From positions 3,808,001 to 3,872,000 of the forward strand of contig OZ251997.1 of NCBI GenBank assembly GCA_965247095.1: a stretch of DNA of 64,000 nt, written 5' to 3'. Within the stretch, counting starts at the first letter, position 1, and each line of letters starts with the position of its first letter. The DNA is from Candidatus Multivorans sp. (GTDB lineage Bacteria; Acidobacteriota; Thermoanaerobaculia; Multivoradales; Multivoraceae). The translations under genes were made by a program, and so were the position numbers. The notes below the pieces were generated by a model. That model was given only the letters and a program-made list of their open reading frames with translations. It searched no databases and was not told the DNA's origin. This document shows, in pieces, positions 37,531 through 44,595 of this stretch.

Positions 37531-38537
37531 AGGTGACCCGCAGTCCCTGGCAGCGCTTCTACGGCTGGGCGCACAGCCGGCGCCGGCGCTACTGGGCGAC
37601 CCGCTCCGAGAGCCTGAATCGGCCCACGGTGAGCGTCGGCAACCTGCACTGGGGCGGCAGCGGCAAGACGCCGACGGTGATCGCCGCGGCTTGCGGTTTG
37701 ACTGCTCAGGGCCCCTCCGGGCCCGGTCTCCGCGTGGCCGTGCTTTCGCGTGGCTACCGCCGGCGGGGCAGCGCGCCGCTCGTCGTCAGTCTCGGCGACG
37801 GCCCCCTGGTCACCGTCGAGGAGGCGGGCGATGAGCCGCTCATGATCGCCGACCAGGCGCCGGGCGTAGCCGTCGTCGTCGGCGCCGACCGCCGCGCGGC
37901 TGCCGCGCTGGCGCTAGGCCGCGACCCGGCCATCGACGTCTTCGTCCTCGACGACGGCTTCTCCCATGTCCGGGTGCGCCGCGACGTCGAGATCCTGACC
38001 TTCCCGGCTACGGACCCGTTCGCCGACGGCCTGCTGTTGCCGGGCGGTCGTCTGCGGGAGCCTCTGGCCATGGCGCGCCTGGCCGATGCCGCGGTGCTCA
38101 CCGGCCTCGAAGCGAGCGACGAACCGCTGGACGACTTCGAGCTGACCCTGCGCTGGCACGGCTTCGCCGGCAGGGTGTTCACCTCGACGCTCCGTGGCGA
38201 AGTCGTAGGCGGTCCGTTACCCAGCCGCCCCCTGCTGCTCACCGGCGTTGCCCGCCCGGAGCGCGTTGCCCGCACCGCGGCGGCCGCTGGCCTCGAATGC
38301 GTGGACCACCTCCGCTTCCCCGACCACCACAGCTACCCACAACGTTCGCTCAGCACCATTGCAGCAGCCTGCACCCGCCACCGCTGCGACGCTGTCCTCA
38401 CGACCTCCAAGGACGCGGTCAAGCTGCGTGGCCGGCTGCCCGAAGGCGCGCCGCCGTTGCTGGAACTCAAGGTCGAAGCCGAGATCGACGGTGTGTTCCT
38501 GCCCTGGCTCTTGGATCGGCTGCAAGGCTGCGGGTAG
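37527..38537 (+). CDS. lpxK: Tetraacyldisaccharide 4'-kinase
   Basis: SVGNLHWGGSGKTP, SRGY, GDEP, LDDGF, FPDHH, TTSKDAVK. Confidence 0.95.
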   Translation: MKVTRSPWQRFYGWAHSRRRRYWATRSESLNRPTVSVGNLHWGGSGKTPTVIAAACGLTAQGPSGPGLRVAVLSRGYRRRGSAPLVVSLGDGPLVTVEEAGDEPLMIADQAPGVAVVVGADRRAAAALALGRDPAIDVFVLDDGFSHVRVRRDVEILTFPATDPFADGLLLPGGRLREPLAMARLADAAVLTGLEASDEPLDDFELTLRWHGFAGRVFTSTLRGEVVGGPLPSRPLLLTGVARPERVARTAAAAGLECVDHLRFPDHHSYPQRSLSTIAAACTRHRCDAVLTTSKDAVKLRGRLPEGAPPLLELKVEAEIDGVFLPWLLDRLQGCG

Positions 38538-38548
38538 ACGCGGACCTT

Positions 38549-38797
38549 ATGAGGAACCTCGAAGTCGAGGCGAAGCGGCAACAATCTTCCGCCTCAGAAC
38601 TGGCGGGAGAGGCGATCGAGGTCATGCTGCGCAGTCGCGCCGAGAAGCGCGCGGCGATACGCGCGGCAATCAGGGAAGCCGAAGCGGGATCGTTCGTGTC
38701 CGAGAAAGCGATGAACGACTGGGTGTCGTCGTGGGGCACCGATTCGGAGACCCCGGCGCCCGAGCCTGATGTGTTGCCCCGTTCTCGTGATCGGTGA
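38549..38797 (+). CDS. RHH/CopG-type antitoxin, probably 5'-truncated
   Basis: SASELAGEAIE...AIREAEAGSFVSEKAMNDWVSSW; GTGA coupling to the toxin. Confidence 0.65.
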   Translation: MRNLEVEAKRQQSSASELAGEAIEVMLRSRAEKRAAIRAAIREAEAGSFVSEKAMNDWVSSWGTDSETPAPEPDVLPRSRDR

Positions 38798-38950
38798 AGC
38801 TCGTTTTCCTGCCGGCCACACGCGCTGACTTGGCGTGGTGGATGCGCAGCTACTACGCTCGGATCTTCCCGGATGGAGCAAGGCACGCTGCCGAGGCCTC
38901 CTTCCCCGCTTGTGAATTGCCTCGAGGCTATCCGGCCCTAGGCCCGGATA
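38794..38950 (+). pseudogene. RelE/ParE toxin N-terminal fragment
   Basis: MKLVFLPATRADL..MRSYYARIFPDGARHAA..YPALG, then similarity is lost. Confidence 0.6.
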
Positions 38951-38972
38951 CTTCACCGAGTCCGCGTGACGG

Positions 38973-39251
38973 GCGCTTGAGGCTCTGCGCGAGGACAGAC
39001 CGCTGTCGGAGATTGCGGCCCGTCACAAGACCACCGGCCGAAGGGAGAGAGCGCGGAGCATCCGGAGCGTTTCGGCCTTATCCGTACCTGCTCAAGGGCC
39101 TGAAGATCGAGCGCTCGCACTCGCCGCTTGGCGGCAGCACACCTAGCGAGGAATACCGCGAAGACCGCCCGGACGCGGCCGTCAGGCACCAGCCGGCAAC
39201 CCCGGACGATCGGCAGAATCCAAGTCTTACACAGCCCCGGCGACGGCTGTT
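38973..39251 (+). mobile_element. Internally deleted IS3-family relic; right end continues at 42274-42337
   Basis: Spliced fragments ALEALREDRPLSEIAARH (OrfA), PYPYLLKGLKIER (OrfB) and HSPLGGSTPSEEY (OrfB C-terminus); IRR-like CTGTCCAACGAACCTGGATCACCCA at 42313-42337. Confidence 0.65.
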
Positions 39252-39305
39252 TGAGCTTGACCCGTTTTGGTGGACACCTCATTCTTGGAAGAGGAGGTAT
39301 CCACG

Positions 39306-39614
39306 ATGTCGAGAAGAAGGAGCCGGTACCCAGCAGAGTACCGGCAGCAGATGGTGGATCTGGTCCGGTCCGGGCGGAGCCCGGACCAACTAGCCCGCGA
39401 GTTCGAGCCGTCAGCGCAGTCGATCCGGAACTGGGTCGCCCAGGCGGACCGGGACGAGGGTCGCCGCAGCGACGGGAGCACGACGGCGGAGCGTGAGGAG
39501 TTGCGCCGTCTGCGCCGGGAGAATCGCCGGCTGCGGGAAGAGCGGGAGATCCTGGCAAAAGCAACGGCCTGGTTCGCTCGGGAGACGGAACCGAAGGGGT
39601 CTTCCGGTTCATGA
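39306..39614 (+). CDS. IS3 OrfA
   Basis: HTH plus EELRRLRRENRRLREEREILAKATAWFA; GAGGAGG RBS. Confidence 0.9.
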   Translation: MSRRRSRYPAEYRQQMVDLVRSGRSPDQLAREFEPSAQSIRNWVAQADRDEGRRSDGSTTAEREELRRLRRENRRLREEREILAKATAWFARETEPKGSSGS

Positions 39615-40261
39615 GAGCGCACCAGGCCGAGTTCCGCGTCACGACGATGGCCCGCGTGCTCGGCGTCTCCACGAGGGGGTTCTACGCCTGGCTGAAGCGC
39701 CCGCGGTCGGCCAGGGAGAAGTCGGACACCGCTCTCGCCGAGCGGGTGCGGGCGATTCACGAACGGAGCCGAGGGACCTACGGGGCGCCGAGGATTCAGG
39801 CTGAACTGGCCGACTGTGGGTTCGCAGTGAGCCGCAAGCGCGTTGCCAGACTGATGCGAGAGTCCGGCCTGGCGGGCATCAGCCGCCGCAAACGGCCGAC
39901 GACGACCCGTCGCGCCGCTTCGGTTCGCCCGGCGCCGGACCTCGTTGATCGGCAGTTCGTGGCTGAGGCCCCGGATCGACTGTGGGTCGCGGACATCACT
40001 TACGTTCCGACGCTTGCCGGGTTCGTGTACCTGTCGATCGTCCTGGACGTATTCAGTCGGCGAATCGTCGGCTGGGCCATGAATTCTTCTCTGGCAACCG
40101 ACCTCGTGCTCAGCGCTCTGGAGATGGCGATTGCCCAGCGGCGACCCGAGTGCGTGATCCACCACTCCGATCAAGGCAGCCAGCTTGGGTTCAAGGGATC
40201 GTCGCAACGCTTGGACGTCCAGGTCCGGTTCCGGTCCTCCTACGGGCGGAGTCTATTGGTT

Positions 40262-40450
40262 AGCCGTCGCCGGGGCTGTGGGAGGTGTGGGAAACGCGGA
40301 GGTCCTCCGGAGCGTTTTCCAAGCGGCTGCGGAAATCGCCTCAGCGATTTCCGAGGGGCCTGTGGGAGAGCTGTGTGAAGCGGGCGGGGGCCCGGGGGCT
40401 TTGCACAGCTCTTCCACCAGACCCGGCAGACGCGACACCTTCCACAGCCC
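40262..40450 (+). ncRNA. Candidate structured non-coding RNA (or ssDNA) module, multi-branch fold
   Basis: 16-bp closing stem plus three internal hairpins; all five non-Watson-Crick stem pairs seen are G-U on the + strand. Confidence 0.55.
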
Positions 40451-40533
40451 TCCGGGACCGGCCGGGCGCATGGATCGAAGGCGTGCTCCCTGGCGGTCAG
40501 ATTCGATTGGAATCCCCGGTCGTTCTCAGCCGC

Positions 40534-41904
40534 CTACGTGTGTACGAGCTCCTCAAAGACTTCGGCAGGCGTTCTCCAGCCGAGTGTCTTGCGGGGTCGG
40601 CTGTTGAGGGCGAGCGCGACCGCGGAGAGGTCGTCGCTGGAGTATCTGACCAGGTCAGTGCCCTTCGGGAAGTACTGGCGTAGCAGCCCATTGGTGTTCT
40701 CGTTGGTGCCCCTCTGCCAGGGGCTTTGCGGATCGCAGAAGTAGATCGCGATTCCGGTGTCGACGCGGAGTTGAGCGTGTTGAGCCATCTCGGCGCCCTG
40801 GTCCCAGGTCAAGGATCGCCGGAGGTGCTCGGGCAGCGTCGTGATCGACGCCGCGATCGCGTCACGGACGGCTTCTGCGCCGTGCCCGGCGAGCGCCGGC
40901 CCGTTCTTCACCCTCGATTCGTTGCCGTGGCCTTCCATACGGGGCAGGTGCAGCAGCATTGTGAAGCGCGTAGTCCGTTCGACGAGGGTGCCGATCGCTG
41001 AGCTCTCGAGCCCGACGATCAGGTCACCTTCCCAGTGGCCCGGTACGGCCCGGTCGCCGGCTTCGGCGGGGCGTTCGCTGATCATGATTCCCGGGGTCAC
41101 AAACTTCTTGCCTGACCTCCGAGTACGCGCACGCGGCACACGTAGCGCTCGCCCGGTTCGCAGGCACGCGACGAGCTCGCGCTTGAGGGCTCCTCGACCT
41201 TGGATGTAGAGCGCTTGGTAGATCGCCTCGTGAGAGATCCGCATCGACTCATCATGAGGAAAATCGATGCGAAGCCGATTCGAGATCTGCTCCGGGCTCC
41301 ACGACTTCGCCCAACGCCGATCCTGGCGGCGACCGTGCCGACGGCCAATCCAACGCACAGCCGGACCGGGTACCGGCTCCCCGTCAGGCCTTGCGATCAA
41401 GCCGGCGAGGCGGTCCTGCACGTACTCACGCAAGGCGTCGTTCGCGGCAAGCTTGGAGACCTTCGGCCGGCTGGCGCGCCGCTCCGCGTGCCACTGGGCA
41501 GTCGTCGCTCGATAGGCGACGCCACCACTTCGAGTCGACGCGTTGCGGCGCAGCTCCCGCGAAATCGTCGACGGTGAACGGCCCATGCGTCGGGCGATTT
41601 CACGTACCCCAATGTGCTGAGCGTGAAGGATGGCGATCTCTTCCCGCTCGGCCAACGACAGATAACGCCCCGACACTGGAGCCAACGAAATAGGCGGCAT
41701 TCCGCCAGCTTCCCTGAACCATCTCGATCCGACTGCCTGCGACACTCCAGCTTCCCGTGCAGCATCCTCGGTGGACGCCCCACGAACGATCGCCTCCCAG
41801 AAGCGGACCCGATCCTCGCGATGCGCTGTCGAGGGACGGCCCGGCGACCACATCTGCCCACGCATCTCACGAATCGCACGCCTACGCTTACCAACTCCCA
41901 TCAC
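40534..41904 (-). CDS. IS30 transposase
   Basis: RSPSTISRELRRN, WSPEQIS, GHWEGDL, WDQGAEM, SPWQRGTNENTNGLLRQYFPKG. Confidence 0.96.
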   Translation of the reverse strand: MMGVGKRRRAIREMRGQMWSPGRPSTAHREDRVRFWEAIVRGASTEDAAREAGVSQAVGSRWFREAGGMPPISLAPVSGRYLSLAEREEIAILHAQHIGVREIARRMGRSPSTISRELRRNASTRSGGVAYRATTAQWHAERRASRPKVSKLAANDALREYVQDRLAGLIARPDGEPVPGPAVRWIGRRHGRRQDRRWAKSWSPEQISNRLRIDFPHDESMRISHEAIYQALYIQGRGALKRELVACLRTGRALRVPRARTRRSGKKFVTPGIMISERPAEAGDRAVPGHWEGDLIVGLESSAIGTLVERTTRFTMLLHLPRMEGHGNESRVKNGPALAGHGAEAVRDAIAASITTLPEHLRRSLTWDQGAEMAQHAQLRVDTGIAIYFCDPQSPWQRGTNENTNGLLRQYFPKGTDLVRYSSDDLSAVALALNSRPRKTLGWRTPAEVFEELVHT

Positions 41905-42371
41905 GAAACACCTCCATCACGAGATGTTGCGACGACCAGTTGAATCCACCCAGTACACTTCACTGACGTTCGGGAACCGCTGCCGCGATGCCGGCATCGC
42001 ACTCTCGATGGGTTCCGTCGGAGATTGCTACGACAACGCCATGGCCGAGAGCTTCTTCGCCAGCCTCGAGTGCGAGCTGCTCGACCAGACAACGTTCCGA
42101 AATCACGCCGAAGCGAAGGCGGAACTCTTTCGCTACATCGAGGGCTGGTACAATACCCATCGTCGCCATTCCGCGATCGGACAACGCTCACCCGTCAACT
42201 TCGAAGAGGCGTACCGAGAGGCCGCCTGATTCCCTAAACACAAACTGTCCACGAAACCGGGGCAACTCCAGTTTGACCAACCAGGGGAGTACACGTTGGC
42301 CCAGCGGCCATACTGTCCAACGAACCTGGATCACCCACTCTATGTAGTGAGCCACTAACTGAGCCACTACA

Positions 42372-43929
42372 TCACCAGCGTAGTCCCATACAGAGATGAG
42401 CCTGAAGGGGGGTCCTCCGGGAGTTGCGCCGAGAGAGTGGGGCGGGGCGGGTTTCAGGGCTGCTGATCGAAGCGAAGCAGAGATCAGCACCAGGGACCAG
42501 CGGTAGCGCGGGAACCGCGAGCCGCAGTCGAGATGCACTGAAGGGCGAGACGGGGAGGTTGGGCTGTCCGCTCATGCGACAGTTGCCTCGCGGCGTCGGA
42601 TTTCGGCGAAGAGTGCGATGAGGGCCTCCTTGACGGCGCTCGCGGCGGCGAGGTCGTCGAGTGCCAGAGCCTGCTGGTCGAGCTGCTCGAAGGTGACGCC
42701 GGGTCGCAGGCAGAGGGCGGCGCCGTCGAGCGACTTGAGCTTGAGGTAGGGCGTGGTGACCTTGTCGAAGGGATAGGTCTTGCGGATGCGTCCCTTCGCG
42801 TCGGTGGTCTCGACGGGGAAGTGGCAGGGCCGGTGGTAGTTGAGGAACGGAGCGAGCACGTCGCGCAGGAAGTCCTTGACGAGGGCGGCATGCCGCCGGG
42901 GAATGTGGTCGTAGCCGAGGTAGCGCCGCACCACCGAGGCGTTCTTGCTCTCGACCAGGGCGTTGTCGTTGCTGCGCCTCGGGCGGGACTTGGTGAACTC
43001 CTCGATGTGCAGCTTGCGCAGCAGCGCGGCCACCCGGTGGTTGATGTACTCGGAGCCGTTGTCGGCGTGGAAGCCCCGGATGATGAACGGGAAAGCCTCG
43101 ATCGATCCTTCCAGGGCCGGAACCAGGAAACGCTCCGAAATGCCTTCTACAGCGGCCACGAACTCGTACTGCGTGACCTCGTCCACGAGATTGATCTCGT
43201 ACAGACCCTTCTCCCCGTCCAGGTCGCCCTGATGGACCGAATCCACTCGCAGAAAGCCCGGCCGACCCGCGGGATGAGGCTTGCGACGCTCTCCGATCTG
43301 TACCTTCGTCGACCGCGTCCTGACCACCACAAGGCGCCGCCGCCGGTACGTGGTCGACTCGCGAAGCCGGTACAGATGGCTGTTCGAGAGACCCGCCAGA
43401 CGCTCGAACCGCACATCCCCGAACACCGCGTACTGGCGCTGCATCATGCGCCGGGTCACCGCGCCGCACAGACCGCCCAGGGTCTCGTCCACCTCGGCCA
43501 GCAGGCCGATGTCCGCCTTCGTGTAGCGCCGGGGAAACGGACGCTTCGGACCCCGGCGCCGGTCCTCGATGCGCCCCGTCTCCCGGTACTGGAAGATCAA
43601 CCGCGCGATCTGCGCCCGACTGAACCCCGTCACCTTGATCAGAAAGCGCCGCACCAGCCCCTTGTCCGGCCTCGACAGCCGAACGTAGCGCGAACGCACC
43701 AGAACCCGCCGCACGAAACCGTACGCATCGGCACGCTTCACGAAGCGGAAGTCGACCGGCGCGCTGCCGGCCATGAAGTCGCGGACCTCGTCCAGGGTCC
43801 GCAGCCGTTCGATATCGAGTCGCAAGATCATCCTCCAATGATCCCCAACCCACTCTCAGGCTCATCTCTCGTGGGATTGACATGACTCCTTCAGGCTCAT
43901 CTGTCATGGGACAAGGCTTCACCTTGACA
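42372..43929 (-). mobile_element. ISNCY/IS481-like element with repeated end motifs; one boundary uncertain
   Basis: Left end TGTCAAGG at 43929; TCAGGCTCATCT twice in 43856-43902 and once inverted near 42394-42405. Confidence 0.7.
42572..43831 (-). CDS. DDE integrase-domain transposase
   Basis: RVDSVHQGD, FHADNGSEYIN, NDNALVESKN, FLNYHRPC. Confidence 0.9.
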   Translation of the reverse strand: MILRLDIERLRTLDEVRDFMAGSAPVDFRFVKRADAYGFVRRVLVRSRYVRLSRPDKGLVRRFLIKVTGFSRAQIARLIFQYRETGRIEDRRRGPKRPFPRRYTKADIGLLAEVDETLGGLCGAVTRRMMQRQYAVFGDVRFERLAGLSNSHLYRLRESTTYRRRRLVVVRTRSTKVQIGERRKPHPAGRPGFLRVDSVHQGDLDGEKGLYEINLVDEVTQYEFVAAVEGISERFLVPALEGSIEAFPFIIRGFHADNGSEYINHRVAALLRKLHIEEFTKSRPRRSNDNALVESKNASVVRRYLGYDHIPRRHAALVKDFLRDVLAPFLNYHRPCHFPVETTDAKGRIRKTYPFDKVTTPYLKLKSLDGAALCLRPGVTFEQLDQQALALDDLAAASAVKEALIALFAEIRRREATVA

Positions 43930-43951
43930 CCGTTTTCTGGCATGCTATACT
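43924..43951 (+). promoter_or_regulatory. Hybrid sigma70 promoter
   Basis: TTGACA (last 6 nt of the IS)-N16-TATACT with extended -10 TG. Confidence 0.65.
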
Positions 43952-43963
43952 AACCCGCATACC

Positions 43964-43997
43964 CAACCGGAGGCCCTCCACAACCGGAGGCCCTCCA
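43964..43997 (+). repeat. 17-bp tandem duplication containing the RBS
   Basis: CAACCGGAGGCCCTCCA x2 just before ATG 43999. Confidence 0.9.
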
Positions 43998-43998
43998 C

Positions 43999-44595
43999 AT
44001 GAAGAAAGACAGTTGGTACCGTGTCCCGCTCCTAAGTGGGCTGTTCTTTGCCCTGCTCATCGTTGGAATGCCGGGAGTGCCTACCGCAACACCGGCTGTG
44101 GCCGAAGAAGTCAAGTGCCCGGCACCCTGCAACTACATTACGGTGATAGGAGCCTTTGTTCCCGTTCACAAGATTCTGATAACATATTCACAGCTCTTGT
44201 CGGCCCTGCCCGGCAGTACTAGATCGATTCTGAGTGACCCGCTTGGCAATCTGATGGGTGGCTTCACCGGGCCAAATATGATTAACCCGGATTTGTCACA
44301 TCTGCAAATGATATCGCCAAAGGTCATCTGGAAGGCTAGCGGCGGCACGCCGGCGAGTTTTTGTCGTCGTCTGGAGGCGTACGACAAGAGCGGCAAGAAG
44401 AACCTGGCGCTAGTTGGGCTGCTTGCGGCCACCGCGCTGTTTGGTCTGGCTCTAACACTCGACCAGGCGGACAAAATGAAGTTGACACCGCAAGATAAGA
44501 AGACTATAAAAATAGCATTAGGCCTAATTGGGTCAAGTGCAGCTGGCTACGCCACACTAAGAGCGGCCTGTAAGCAAATGGGTCACGGATGGTAG
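43999..44595 (+). CDS. Secreted hypothetical protein with two C-terminal hydrophobic helices
   Basis: RBS, Sec signal ending AVA-EE, lower GC than flanks, 4 Cys. Confidence 0.7.
   Translation: MKKDSWYRVPLLSGLFFALLIVGMPGVPTATPAVAEEVKCPAPCNYITVIGAFVPVHKILITYSQLLSALPGSTRSILSDPLGNLMGGFTGPNMINPDLSHLQMISPKVIWKASGGTPASFCRRLEAYDKSGKKNLALVGLLAATALFGLALTLDQADKMKLTPQDKKTIKIALGLIGSSAAGYATLRAACKQMGHGW

Follow-up and report, generated by a model that had tools for sequence, protein, structure and literature searches.

Several kinds of small hairpin-forming sequence are known from bacterial genomes. Repetitive extragenic palindromic (REP) sequences, bacterial interspersed mosaic elements (BIME) and the REPINs associated with REP-associated tyrosine transposases (RAYT) of the Y1 type are short, GC-rich, imperfect palindromes with a conserved 5' head, present in multiple copies and folding on one strand; some families of insertion sequences (IS) interact with REP/BIME. 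Single-strand origins (sso) of rolling-circle plasmids and the G4-type and ssiA priming signals are strand- and orientation-specific multi-hairpin folds of 100-200 nt, which serve as exchangeable cassettes common to unrelated replicons. Miniature inverted-repeat transposable elements (MITEs) and transposase-less derivatives found in IS are small and non-coding, have inverted-repeat arms, and are patchy among close relatives. Finally, IS3-family elements of the IS1397/ISKpn1 type insert into palindromic units, and IS110 elements choose their targets with a bridge RNA. Here we describe a hairpin module that recalls each of these systems in part, found in a 64,000-nt stretch of the Candidatus Multivorans sp. 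genome (contig OZ251997.1, positions 3,808,001 to 3,872,000; "the window"). In the window it lies within an IS30-family element, and its first 19 nt recur, as an exact complement, beside the target duplication of an IS3-family element. Relatives of this one structured, apparently single-strand-specific module occur inside at least six unrelated IS families; roughly one in two genomes sampled from the order, and one in five from the phylum, had them.

The sequence CACAGCCCCGGCGACGGCT at 39230-39248 (plus strand) is the exact reverse complement of 40262-40280 (19 nt, 100% complementary by repeat search) and ends at a GTT target duplication, just as the original prediction had described. With up to two mismatches allowed, the window holds two matches to the 19-mer against 0.01 expected, and two or more were found in 0 of 100 dinucleotide-preserving shuffles. 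The whole genome (4.62 Mb, 67.7% G+C, one contig) has three copies at up to one mismatch, four at up to two and 18 at up to three. The three closest copies are the flank at 39230-39248, which belongs to an IS3-family relic, and one in each of two identical IS30 elements; being so rare, the 19-mer is no common genomic word. Every close copy lies inside an IS, so the frequent occurrence outside IS that would have spoken against the original prediction did not appear. Complementarity stops at 19 nt, the next three letters on the IS30 side being GTT, not AAC.

Very probably, as the best explanation of the locus as a whole, each of the two 19-mers is a separate copy of a single conserved sequence, which forms the outer 5' arm ("box") of IS-borne hairpin modules. 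Each box would read inward from its own IS end, and the two would be complementary because their carrier elements lie in opposite orientation. The 19/19 identity of the two copies is made up of 18 consensus letters and one common variant. The coincidence is an ordinary outcome of nested insertion sequences and a common repeat. The window contains a nest: a younger IS3 inserted into the 3' non-coding end of an old IS3-family element, now a relic, and the orfB of the younger IS3 later received the IS30. The features of this nest are given below, with scores of R1, a covariance model of the box and first hairpin built from 13 sequences.

38972-39248, plus strand: left part of the decayed IS3-family relic, recognised by blastn blocks against an intact relative (L033), copy boundaries from L034/L035, and orfA-like and orfB-like translated fragments.
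39230-39248, minus strand (module orientation): box copy 1, in the relic 3' end; a box alone, without hairpins (R1 16.6 bits, E 0.43).
39249-39251, no strand: left GTT of the 3-bp target duplication of the younger IS3; the letters belong to the relic (GGCT-GTT-TGACC).
39252-42270, plus strand: younger IS3-family element with TG...CA ends (Pfam HTH_Tnp_1, HTH_21, rve, rve_3/rve_2).
39306-39611 (orfA), and 39611-40183 with 41951-42229 (orfB, split by the IS30), plus strand: genes of the younger IS3, from open frames.
40184-41949, minus strand: IS30-family element, 1,766 bp (Pfam HTH_38 and rve; inverted repeats; a second identical copy exists).
40534-41904, minus strand: IS30 transposase (456-aa protein at 40537-41904; Pfam HTH_38 and rve).
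About 40184-40208 and 41926-41949: inverted repeats of the IS30, from a repeat search.
40180-40183 and 41950-41953: direct repeat CCAG flanking the IS30; the duplication could be 3 or 4 bp.
40262-40453, plus strand: multi-hairpin module in the IS30 3' non-coding region, reading inward from the IS30 end and antisense to the transposase (R1 70.2 bits).
40262-40280, plus strand: box copy 2, forming the module's 5' edge; it lies 78 nt in from the IS30 terminus.
42271-42273, no strand: right GTT of the target duplication, directly after the ...CTCCA end of the younger IS3 (42270).
42273-42341 (end approximate), plus strand: right end of the relic, severed by the younger IS3; 42273-42335 aligns at 83% identity with the intact relative (its positions 2018-2080; the relative ends after a further 6-9 nt).

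The 330 nt between the terminal repeat and the transposase stop of the IS30 fold beyond shuffled sequences on both strands (z of -5.9 on the plus and -4.3 on the minus strand). In the fold, an outer helix formed by 40273-40288 and 40435-40450 encloses three hairpins. A DNA search of 61 related genomes found relatives of the module in 13, with matches from 12 other genomes beginning at query positions 77-81 (40262-40266), i.e., at the 19-mer, and the aligned copies have a sharply conserved start, ..CCGTCGYCGGGGCTGTGGGAGCTGTGGGAAACGCG..; therefore 40262-40280 is the outer 5' arm of a discrete module spanning 40262-40453. The module opens with a box of consensus CCGYCGCCGGGGCTGTGG, its outer helix is closed by ...CCACAGCC, and one to four hairpins of the type CTGTGGGAAAC...GTTTTCC stand in between. 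Both 19-mers of the window conform to CCGYCGCCGGGGCTGTGG; the closing arm and the GGGAAAC...GTTTTCC hairpins are present in the IS30 copy but not in the relic copy.

Related IS30 elements differ in this region. Three relatives at 59% protein identity have no module and end about 15 nt past the stop codon, and one at 71% has no module and a different palindrome in its 3' region. The module-less relatives differ over the entire 3' region, leaving no precise empty site, and no target duplication was seen at the module edges 40262/40453, where inverted arms are present. Simple scans revealed no terminator- or promoter-like site in the module. A reading of GGGAAAC-N17-CGTT as a promoter for an extracytoplasmic function (ECF) sigma factor was rejected, as it fits the first hairpin of the window only and not the short hairpins. 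Low-depth contigs (runs X5, X6 and X10; region 40209-40540), whose sides are only 26 nt, hint at further IS30 variants: in one, an IS30 relative of about 92% identity has the whole 330-nt 3' region replaced by 17 letters (a weak hint, the shorter side being 26 nt), and another variant, at low depth and with 26-nt sides, keeps 40249-40274, the first half of the box, and skips 40275-40479.

Pfam domains of open frames, and not curated IS names, were used to assign the IS families. The younger IS3 has matches to HTH_Tnp_1 (39306-39611), HTH_21 and rve (39611-40186), and rve_3 and rve_2 (41951-42226); its overlapping orfA (HTH) and orfB (rve, DDE) frames, TG...CA ends and 3-bp duplication are those of the IS3 family. 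The IS30 has one long transposase (HTH_38 and rve), inverted repeats of about 25 bp and a short target duplication, as in the IS30 family. For the relic, the IS3 assignment comes solely from homology of its fragments to a 1.34-kb orfAB relative. Removal of the IS30 in silico restores the orfB reading ...DQGSQ-YTSL..., and an uninterrupted IS3 copy of 1,252 bp, 99% identical, is present elsewhere in the same genome (G000 4018438-4019689). This copy has GTT on the right side only and no matching duplication, which suggests that at least one IS3 copy has recombined. The second IS30 copy, 100% identical (G000 468084-469846), lies inside another IS3 copy, 88% identical to the younger IS3, at the same orfB position and in the opposite relative orientation. 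Among contigs of four other samples, those of two gave the one firm joint: they join 40179 to 41950, skipping 1,770 nt with four common letters, and thus hold the IS3 without the IS30; a contig of a third sample has the IS30 inserted in the opposite orientation. The same orfB site, between ...GGCAGCCAG and TACACT..., is thus occupied in both IS3 copies (the second at G000:C1:467761-470780), which points to a strong preference of the IS30 for a site inside IS3 orfB.

Host DNA is conserved in relatives up to about 38937, and IS3-family fragments follow it. Four blocks (38972-39035, 39030-39058, 39058-39113 and 39108-39247) align in order with the intact 1.34-kb relative, which occurs in three 99.9%-identical copies in one genome (G035), and 42273-42335, beyond the younger IS3, is 83% identical to the last 70 nt of this relative. 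The first ~117 nt and most of orfA and orfB are deleted from the relic, pieces of which are present in 20 of 42 genomes of the genus. At the place of the 19-mer, all 15 relative loci (seven genomes) read CACAGCCCCG[G/A]CG[A/G]CGGC[G/T], 16-18 of the 19 letters being identical, with TTTTC before and 72 nt after, to the ...CCTCA terminus. The 19-mer is therefore native to the relic, as the original prediction supposed in naming the relic its owner, and the younger IS3 landed inside the relic end; uninterrupted, this end would read ...CACAGCCCCGGCGACGGCTGTTTGACCAACC....

In these relatives, roughly the final nine orfB codons are overlapped by the box, the frame differing between two subfamilies (...FPQPRRRRAA and ...FSTAPATAAAA) whose proteins are 80-83% identical; whatever keeps the box there acts on nucleotides. 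Besides the box, the relatives hold word-like vestiges, CTGTGGAAAAC and CTGCGGAAT, and no closing arm or hairpins; their R1 scores are 19-24 bits versus 54-76 bits for full modules. The box of the relic lineage is plausibly a decayed module. Three observations weigh against reading both 19-mers as edges of the same module: with the hairpins absent from the relic's relatives, the sameness of the module comes down to a likeness over 19-25 nt; the box of the relatives falls in coding sequence; and its conservation, at 16-18 of 19 letters, is only modestly above that of the surroundings (81-85%). Of the proposal that the relic once carried the same module, the nativeness of the box to the relic lineage stands; a former full module there is no more than plausible. 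The wider proposal, that a structured module is common to unrelated IS families, was borne out, and the module opens with the 19-mer itself.

The perfect identity of the two boxes could also have come from local copying, if gene conversion or template switching between nearby inverted copies had transferred the 19-mer of the IS30 module to the relic, or that of the relic to the module. The copies are indeed 1 kb apart and inverted, and their identity takes in the terminal T/A, where most relatives of the relic have G. However, the relatives natively hold 16-18 of the 19 letters, one of them (L044) also ending in T, so that a single common variant needs no special event, and the likeness breaks off sharply at 19 nt; we consider such copying very unlikely.

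The box copy in the relic abuts the GTT at 39249-39251 exactly, the younger IS3 starting with TGAGC at 39252. An exact 19-nt complementarity terminating precisely at a target duplication invites the idea, raised in the original prediction as a less likely alternative, that the IS30 module, as DNA or RNA, pairs with a chromosomal 19-mer and steers an IS3::IS30 composite there, in the manner of IS110 bridge RNA. For the lineage of the younger IS3, 29 left ends were gathered from 27 loci of the genus (loci L386-L415). A box within 80 nt of the left flank (up to four mismatches, either strand) was found in 1 of the 29, the window's own. Other IS3 copies of this genome have unrelated flanks; the second IS3::IS30 composite (G000 467761-470780) has no such flank, and the comparison of copies with and without the IS30 showed the near-identical IS3 without it to sit in unrelated DNA. 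The existence of that 99%-identical IS3 also means that the IS30 was a separate arrival, and the flanking 19-mer pre-exists in insertion-free relatives of the relic. Moreover, by their Pfam domains the IS3 and IS30 enzymes here are DDE transposases, not IS110-type recombinases, and no guide is known for DDE enzymes. Guided targeting is thus unsupported and, in our judgement, highly improbable.

The same two facts, one insertion in 29 beside a box and DDE transposases, set the locus apart from both IS110 bridge-RNA targeting and IS1397/ISKpn1, an IS3-family element beside a small hairpin-forming sequence being the point of likeness to the latter. IS insertion into the ends of other IS is common in these genomes, and the position of the younger IS3 beside a box is a single event, a chance of insertion. 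Five of the 29 left flanks end in GTT directly before the TGAGC terminus, which suggests a mild GTT target preference of the lineage and nothing more. Two other explanations of the paired 19-mers were rejected. One hairpin, whose arms would be the two 19-mers plus GTT and whose loop had taken up an insertion (compare IS1397), does not fit, as the intervening segment (the left part of the IS3 plus 78 nt of the IS30) is not a mobile unit and the right target duplication is at 42271. A Tn3-type terminal repeat was considered because GGGG opens the arms, but the relatives conserve 10 nt further out, and there is no 5-bp duplication.

Single-sequence folding closed the outer helix around one to four hairpins in 27 of 29 module members. 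Covariation was analysed in 17 members with two hairpins, drawn from IS21, IS110, IS256, IS3 and other contexts, giving 36 pairs and 612 cells. Standard pairs filled 91.8% of the cells versus 85.1% in shuffles, and both-sided changes were seen at 13 of the 36 pairs versus 7.0 +/- 1.3 in shuffles (0 of 500 reached 13) and 2-7 in slid controls. Besides their pairing, the helices also conserve their sequence. Wobbles occur at fixed places, G.U being found at one pair in 16 of the 17 members and at another in 12, and in total 56 of the 612 cells are G.T or T.G versus four A.C or C.A. The inward strand folds better in all 17 modules, with RNA and with DNA parameters. As G.T pairs are kept on the inward-reading strand only, the module probably acts single-stranded, and selection would be on a single strand of RNA or DNA rather than on a duplex; a strand-specific fold does not tell DNA from RNA. 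Of 38 distinct modules, 22 have the motif GCGNAGC at hairpin tips, with 28 occurrences on the inward strand (N being C in 17, G in 6, A in 3 and T in 2) versus two on the other. The pairing of the arms with wobble on one strand only and their fixed orientation to the host IS end distinguish the module from MITEs, and neither a target duplication nor a parent transposon was found for it.

In its own genome, the module has six strong copies, two in IS30 and four in IS21 elements, all inside these elements; the IS21 modules lie shortly downstream of istB on the other strand, enclosed by the terminal GTGAGCCAC repeats. The module thus differs from REP/BIME in being placed inside IS, not between host genes, with a copy number that follows the carrier IS (six here), and from REP and REPIN sequences in being built from nested copies of one hairpin word. 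Nor was a RAYT gene found beside the module: the genome gave a single Y1_Tnp-like match (34.9 bits, G000 2898256-2898492), far from the copies. Beyond this genome, R1 matches were counted in samples of the order and phylum, which are described as actinobacterial; these samples are draws in which kin are not independent, and as R1 contains the box, its counts lean towards box-bearing members and miss box-less relatives. In the order sample, which includes this genome and one unpublished genome (G168), 74 of 151 genomes (64 of 127 of good quality; 40 of 63 genera) had matches at E <=1e-4, the maximum being 29 copies. In the phylum sample, which includes this genome and another unpublished one (G220), matches at E <=1e-6 were found in 33 of 151 genomes and 30 of 106 genera.

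By Pfam scans of neighbouring frames, the carriers belong to IS3, IS21, IS30, IS110, IS256 and IS481-like elements. In IS21, the module is downstream of istB and antisense, with one case upstream of istA in sense; in IS3 and in an rve element it is downstream and antisense; in IS256, IS110 and IS481-like elements it is upstream and in sense. In an IS110 of G010, the element boundary, read from three copies, is 72 nt outside the box; a replication-strand bias of the IS110 copies in G010 is not separable from the usual bias in gene orientation. All these placements follow one rule: from the nearest IS end the module reads inward, with the box at its outer edge, and it lies between the terminal repeat and the gene. 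In five module-rich genomes, 22 of 30 IstB loci hold the module, in 19 of the 22 downstream on the opposite strand, and 18 of 30 IS110 loci hold it, in all 18 upstream on the same strand; both placements are inward. In the same five genomes, no module of their own was found in 30 IS4/IS5-type loci (one adjacent match was not shared by sister copies), 21 IS630-type loci or eight IS66 loci. Module presence goes by lineage, since IS256 lacks it in these five genomes but carries it elsewhere, and the absences from IS4/IS5-type, IS630 and IS66 elements (0 integral modules in 59 loci) are therefore weak evidence.

Further scans extended this survey. Module matches are very often located about 20-200 nt from contig ends in fragmented assemblies, their carriers being a frequent cause of assembly breaks. 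A blastn search of PLSDB plasmids with a typical module gave no match. A scan of a public genome collection with an 18-nt box pattern returned mostly chance matches in coding DNA (about nine real by eye among at least 120 matches listed) and gives no census. In Rfam 15, the window region 38500-44000 (E <=1) had nothing over the module save a chance-level mir-1228 match (25 bits against an 88-bit threshold), and seven carrier loci (E <=0.1) had no match. Full-text literature searches, judged by listings and abstracts, found no paper describing a structured module common to IS families, and the family appears to be undescribed.

Modules cluster by host lineage and not by the IS family that carries them. 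IS21-borne modules of this genome match IS110 modules from four congeneric genomes at 81-88% identity, and IS21 modules from other genera at 59-66%; one IS256 module matches IS21-borne and other modules at 77-82%. Exchange between families inside a lineage would be expected to leave this pattern, and such exchange within host lineages has probably taken place.

As to function, we tentatively favour, by analogy with sso and phage priming sites, a role of the module as a portable signal for complementary-strand initiation on, or protection of, single-stranded DNA in copy-out transposition. A narrower form, possible but doubtful, is that of a portable single-strand origin for IS, which would be a cassette traded among unrelated circle-forming families within a lineage, with the box as its basal arm. 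The module would fold in the DNA strand that is circularised and displaced as copy-out-paste-in elements replicate out of the donor, and would then serve as do the single-strand origins of rolling-circle plasmids or the primase sites of single-stranded DNA phages. According to a preprint that describes the copy-out-paste-in pathway (bioRxiv 10.1101/2023.06.07.543989), a 3' end at one end of the IS attacks that same strand at a point outside the opposite end, and the freed 3'-OH of the flank then primes replication into the IS. From this published description, the circularised strand would be displaced from the end at which replication enters and would itself need copying; by a geometric argument, an inward-reading module would lie on the displaced strand, in the part displaced first. 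The families listed there with circular intermediates, presumably copy-out-paste-in elements, include all the carriers except IS481 (bioRxiv 10.1101/2023.06.07.543989), which is IS3-like.

The hairpin tips provide a second link. As stated in a 2026 review (PMC13037366), GCGNAGC and GCGNNAGC form extraordinarily stable DNA mini-hairpins that bind the single-stranded DNA-binding protein SSB poorly, while their RNA counterparts are considerably less stable. The same review locates such sequences where primase starts on phages G4, St-1 and alpha3, within ssiA of a broad-host-range plasmid, and in the single-strand promoters of phage N4 (PMC13037366), so that G4-type and ssiA priming sites have tips of the kind seen in the modules. 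The likeness to sso, in turn, is one of fold and tips, and priming is a proposal. Our literature searches found no IS-borne sso, and to our knowledge no insertion sequence is known to carry one.

Several findings speak against a signal of this kind. The IS30 module of the window has no GCGNAGC tip. IS110 elements are known only for conservative recombination, and a replication signal is not obviously useful there. In the five module-rich genomes, no module of their own was found in 30 loci of ISL3, a circle-forming family (three matches belonged to adjacent IS21), or in 30 IS256 loci (one adjacent match). A few copies adjoin non-IS genes, namely hsdM, an ABC transporter gene and an epimerase gene. 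Lastly, an inward-reading RNA function would fit the orientation rule equally well.

Under such an RNA function, transcripts entering the IS from outside, or from a circle-junction promoter, would fold in the module and be blocked, ended or stabilised there; the module could insulate the element against read-in or serve as a leader of the transposase mRNA. Apart from the inward orientation, in IS110, IS256, IS481 and at istA the module stands between the element end and the start codon in sense; the G.U pairs, covariation and conserved junction letters fit RNA; and some tips are CUUG or UCCG tetraloops, which are stable RNA loops. On the other hand, the simple scan gave no terminator-like site, no Rfam family matched, and at IS3, IS21 (istB) and IS30 ends the module would act on antisense read-in only. 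The GCGNAGC tips, moreover, are much less stable in RNA, according to the review (PMC13037366). Overall, we regard an RNA role as rather unlikely.

The module could also be a selfish passenger, i.e., a miniature palindromic element or a segment spread by recombination, riding in IS with no benefit to them. It is patchy within IS families, with close IS30 relatives lacking it, its hairpin number varies from one to four, and the genome holds one Y1 transposase-like gene. Some copies stand beside non-IS genes, and in G013 an IS110 left end and module occur with no transposase gene found nearby. But neither a target duplication nor an empty/filled pair was found for the module alone, and its strict inward orientation and place between terminal repeat and gene in six IS families, together with the covariation and the retained wobble pairs, speak for a fold under selection; a mere passenger also seems rather improbable. 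Some of the copies mentioned deserve description. A full module in L178 (G098) lies about 400 nt upstream of a DUF222 gene, and one in L183 (G078) lies just upstream of the type I restriction-modification methylase gene hsdM; neither context is obviously that of an IS. In G013, loci L008 and L018 (compare L184 of G010 and L191 of G028) represent a 72-nt IS110 left end with the module in several copies, and no IS110 transposase domain was found in the open reading frames scanned within 1.5 kb; these may be IS110 derivatives that retain the module and no transposase.

If the module is a host-factor or priming signal for copy-out transposition, as tentatively favoured here, it would be the first accessory cis element common to IS families; as a priming signal, it would also offer a handle on the conversion of single-strand circles to duplex, an open stage in copy-out-paste-in. 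If it is a passenger, it would be a new kind of repeat living only inside mobile elements. Either way, it is a practical marker for IS ends and a cause of assembly breaks in actinobacterial genomes.

The surroundings of the nest contain further features. Upstream, 38549-38937 holds an antitoxin-like open reading frame, for which there was no Pfam match, and a second one, read by eye as ParE/RelE-like (MKLVFLPATRADLAWW...); this segment is 78-83% conserved in relatives up to about 38937, and the toxin-like frame is apparently truncated by the IS3 relic. Just past the relic end, 42340-42391 contains GTGAGCCAC and CTGAGCCAC words resembling the terminal repeats of the IS21 elements of this genome. 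It is followed by a further element at 42392-43902, which has inverted repeats (AGAGATGAGCCTGAAGG...) and encodes, on the minus strand, an rve protein of 419 aa, and a perfect 17-bp tandem duplication is located at 43964-43997.

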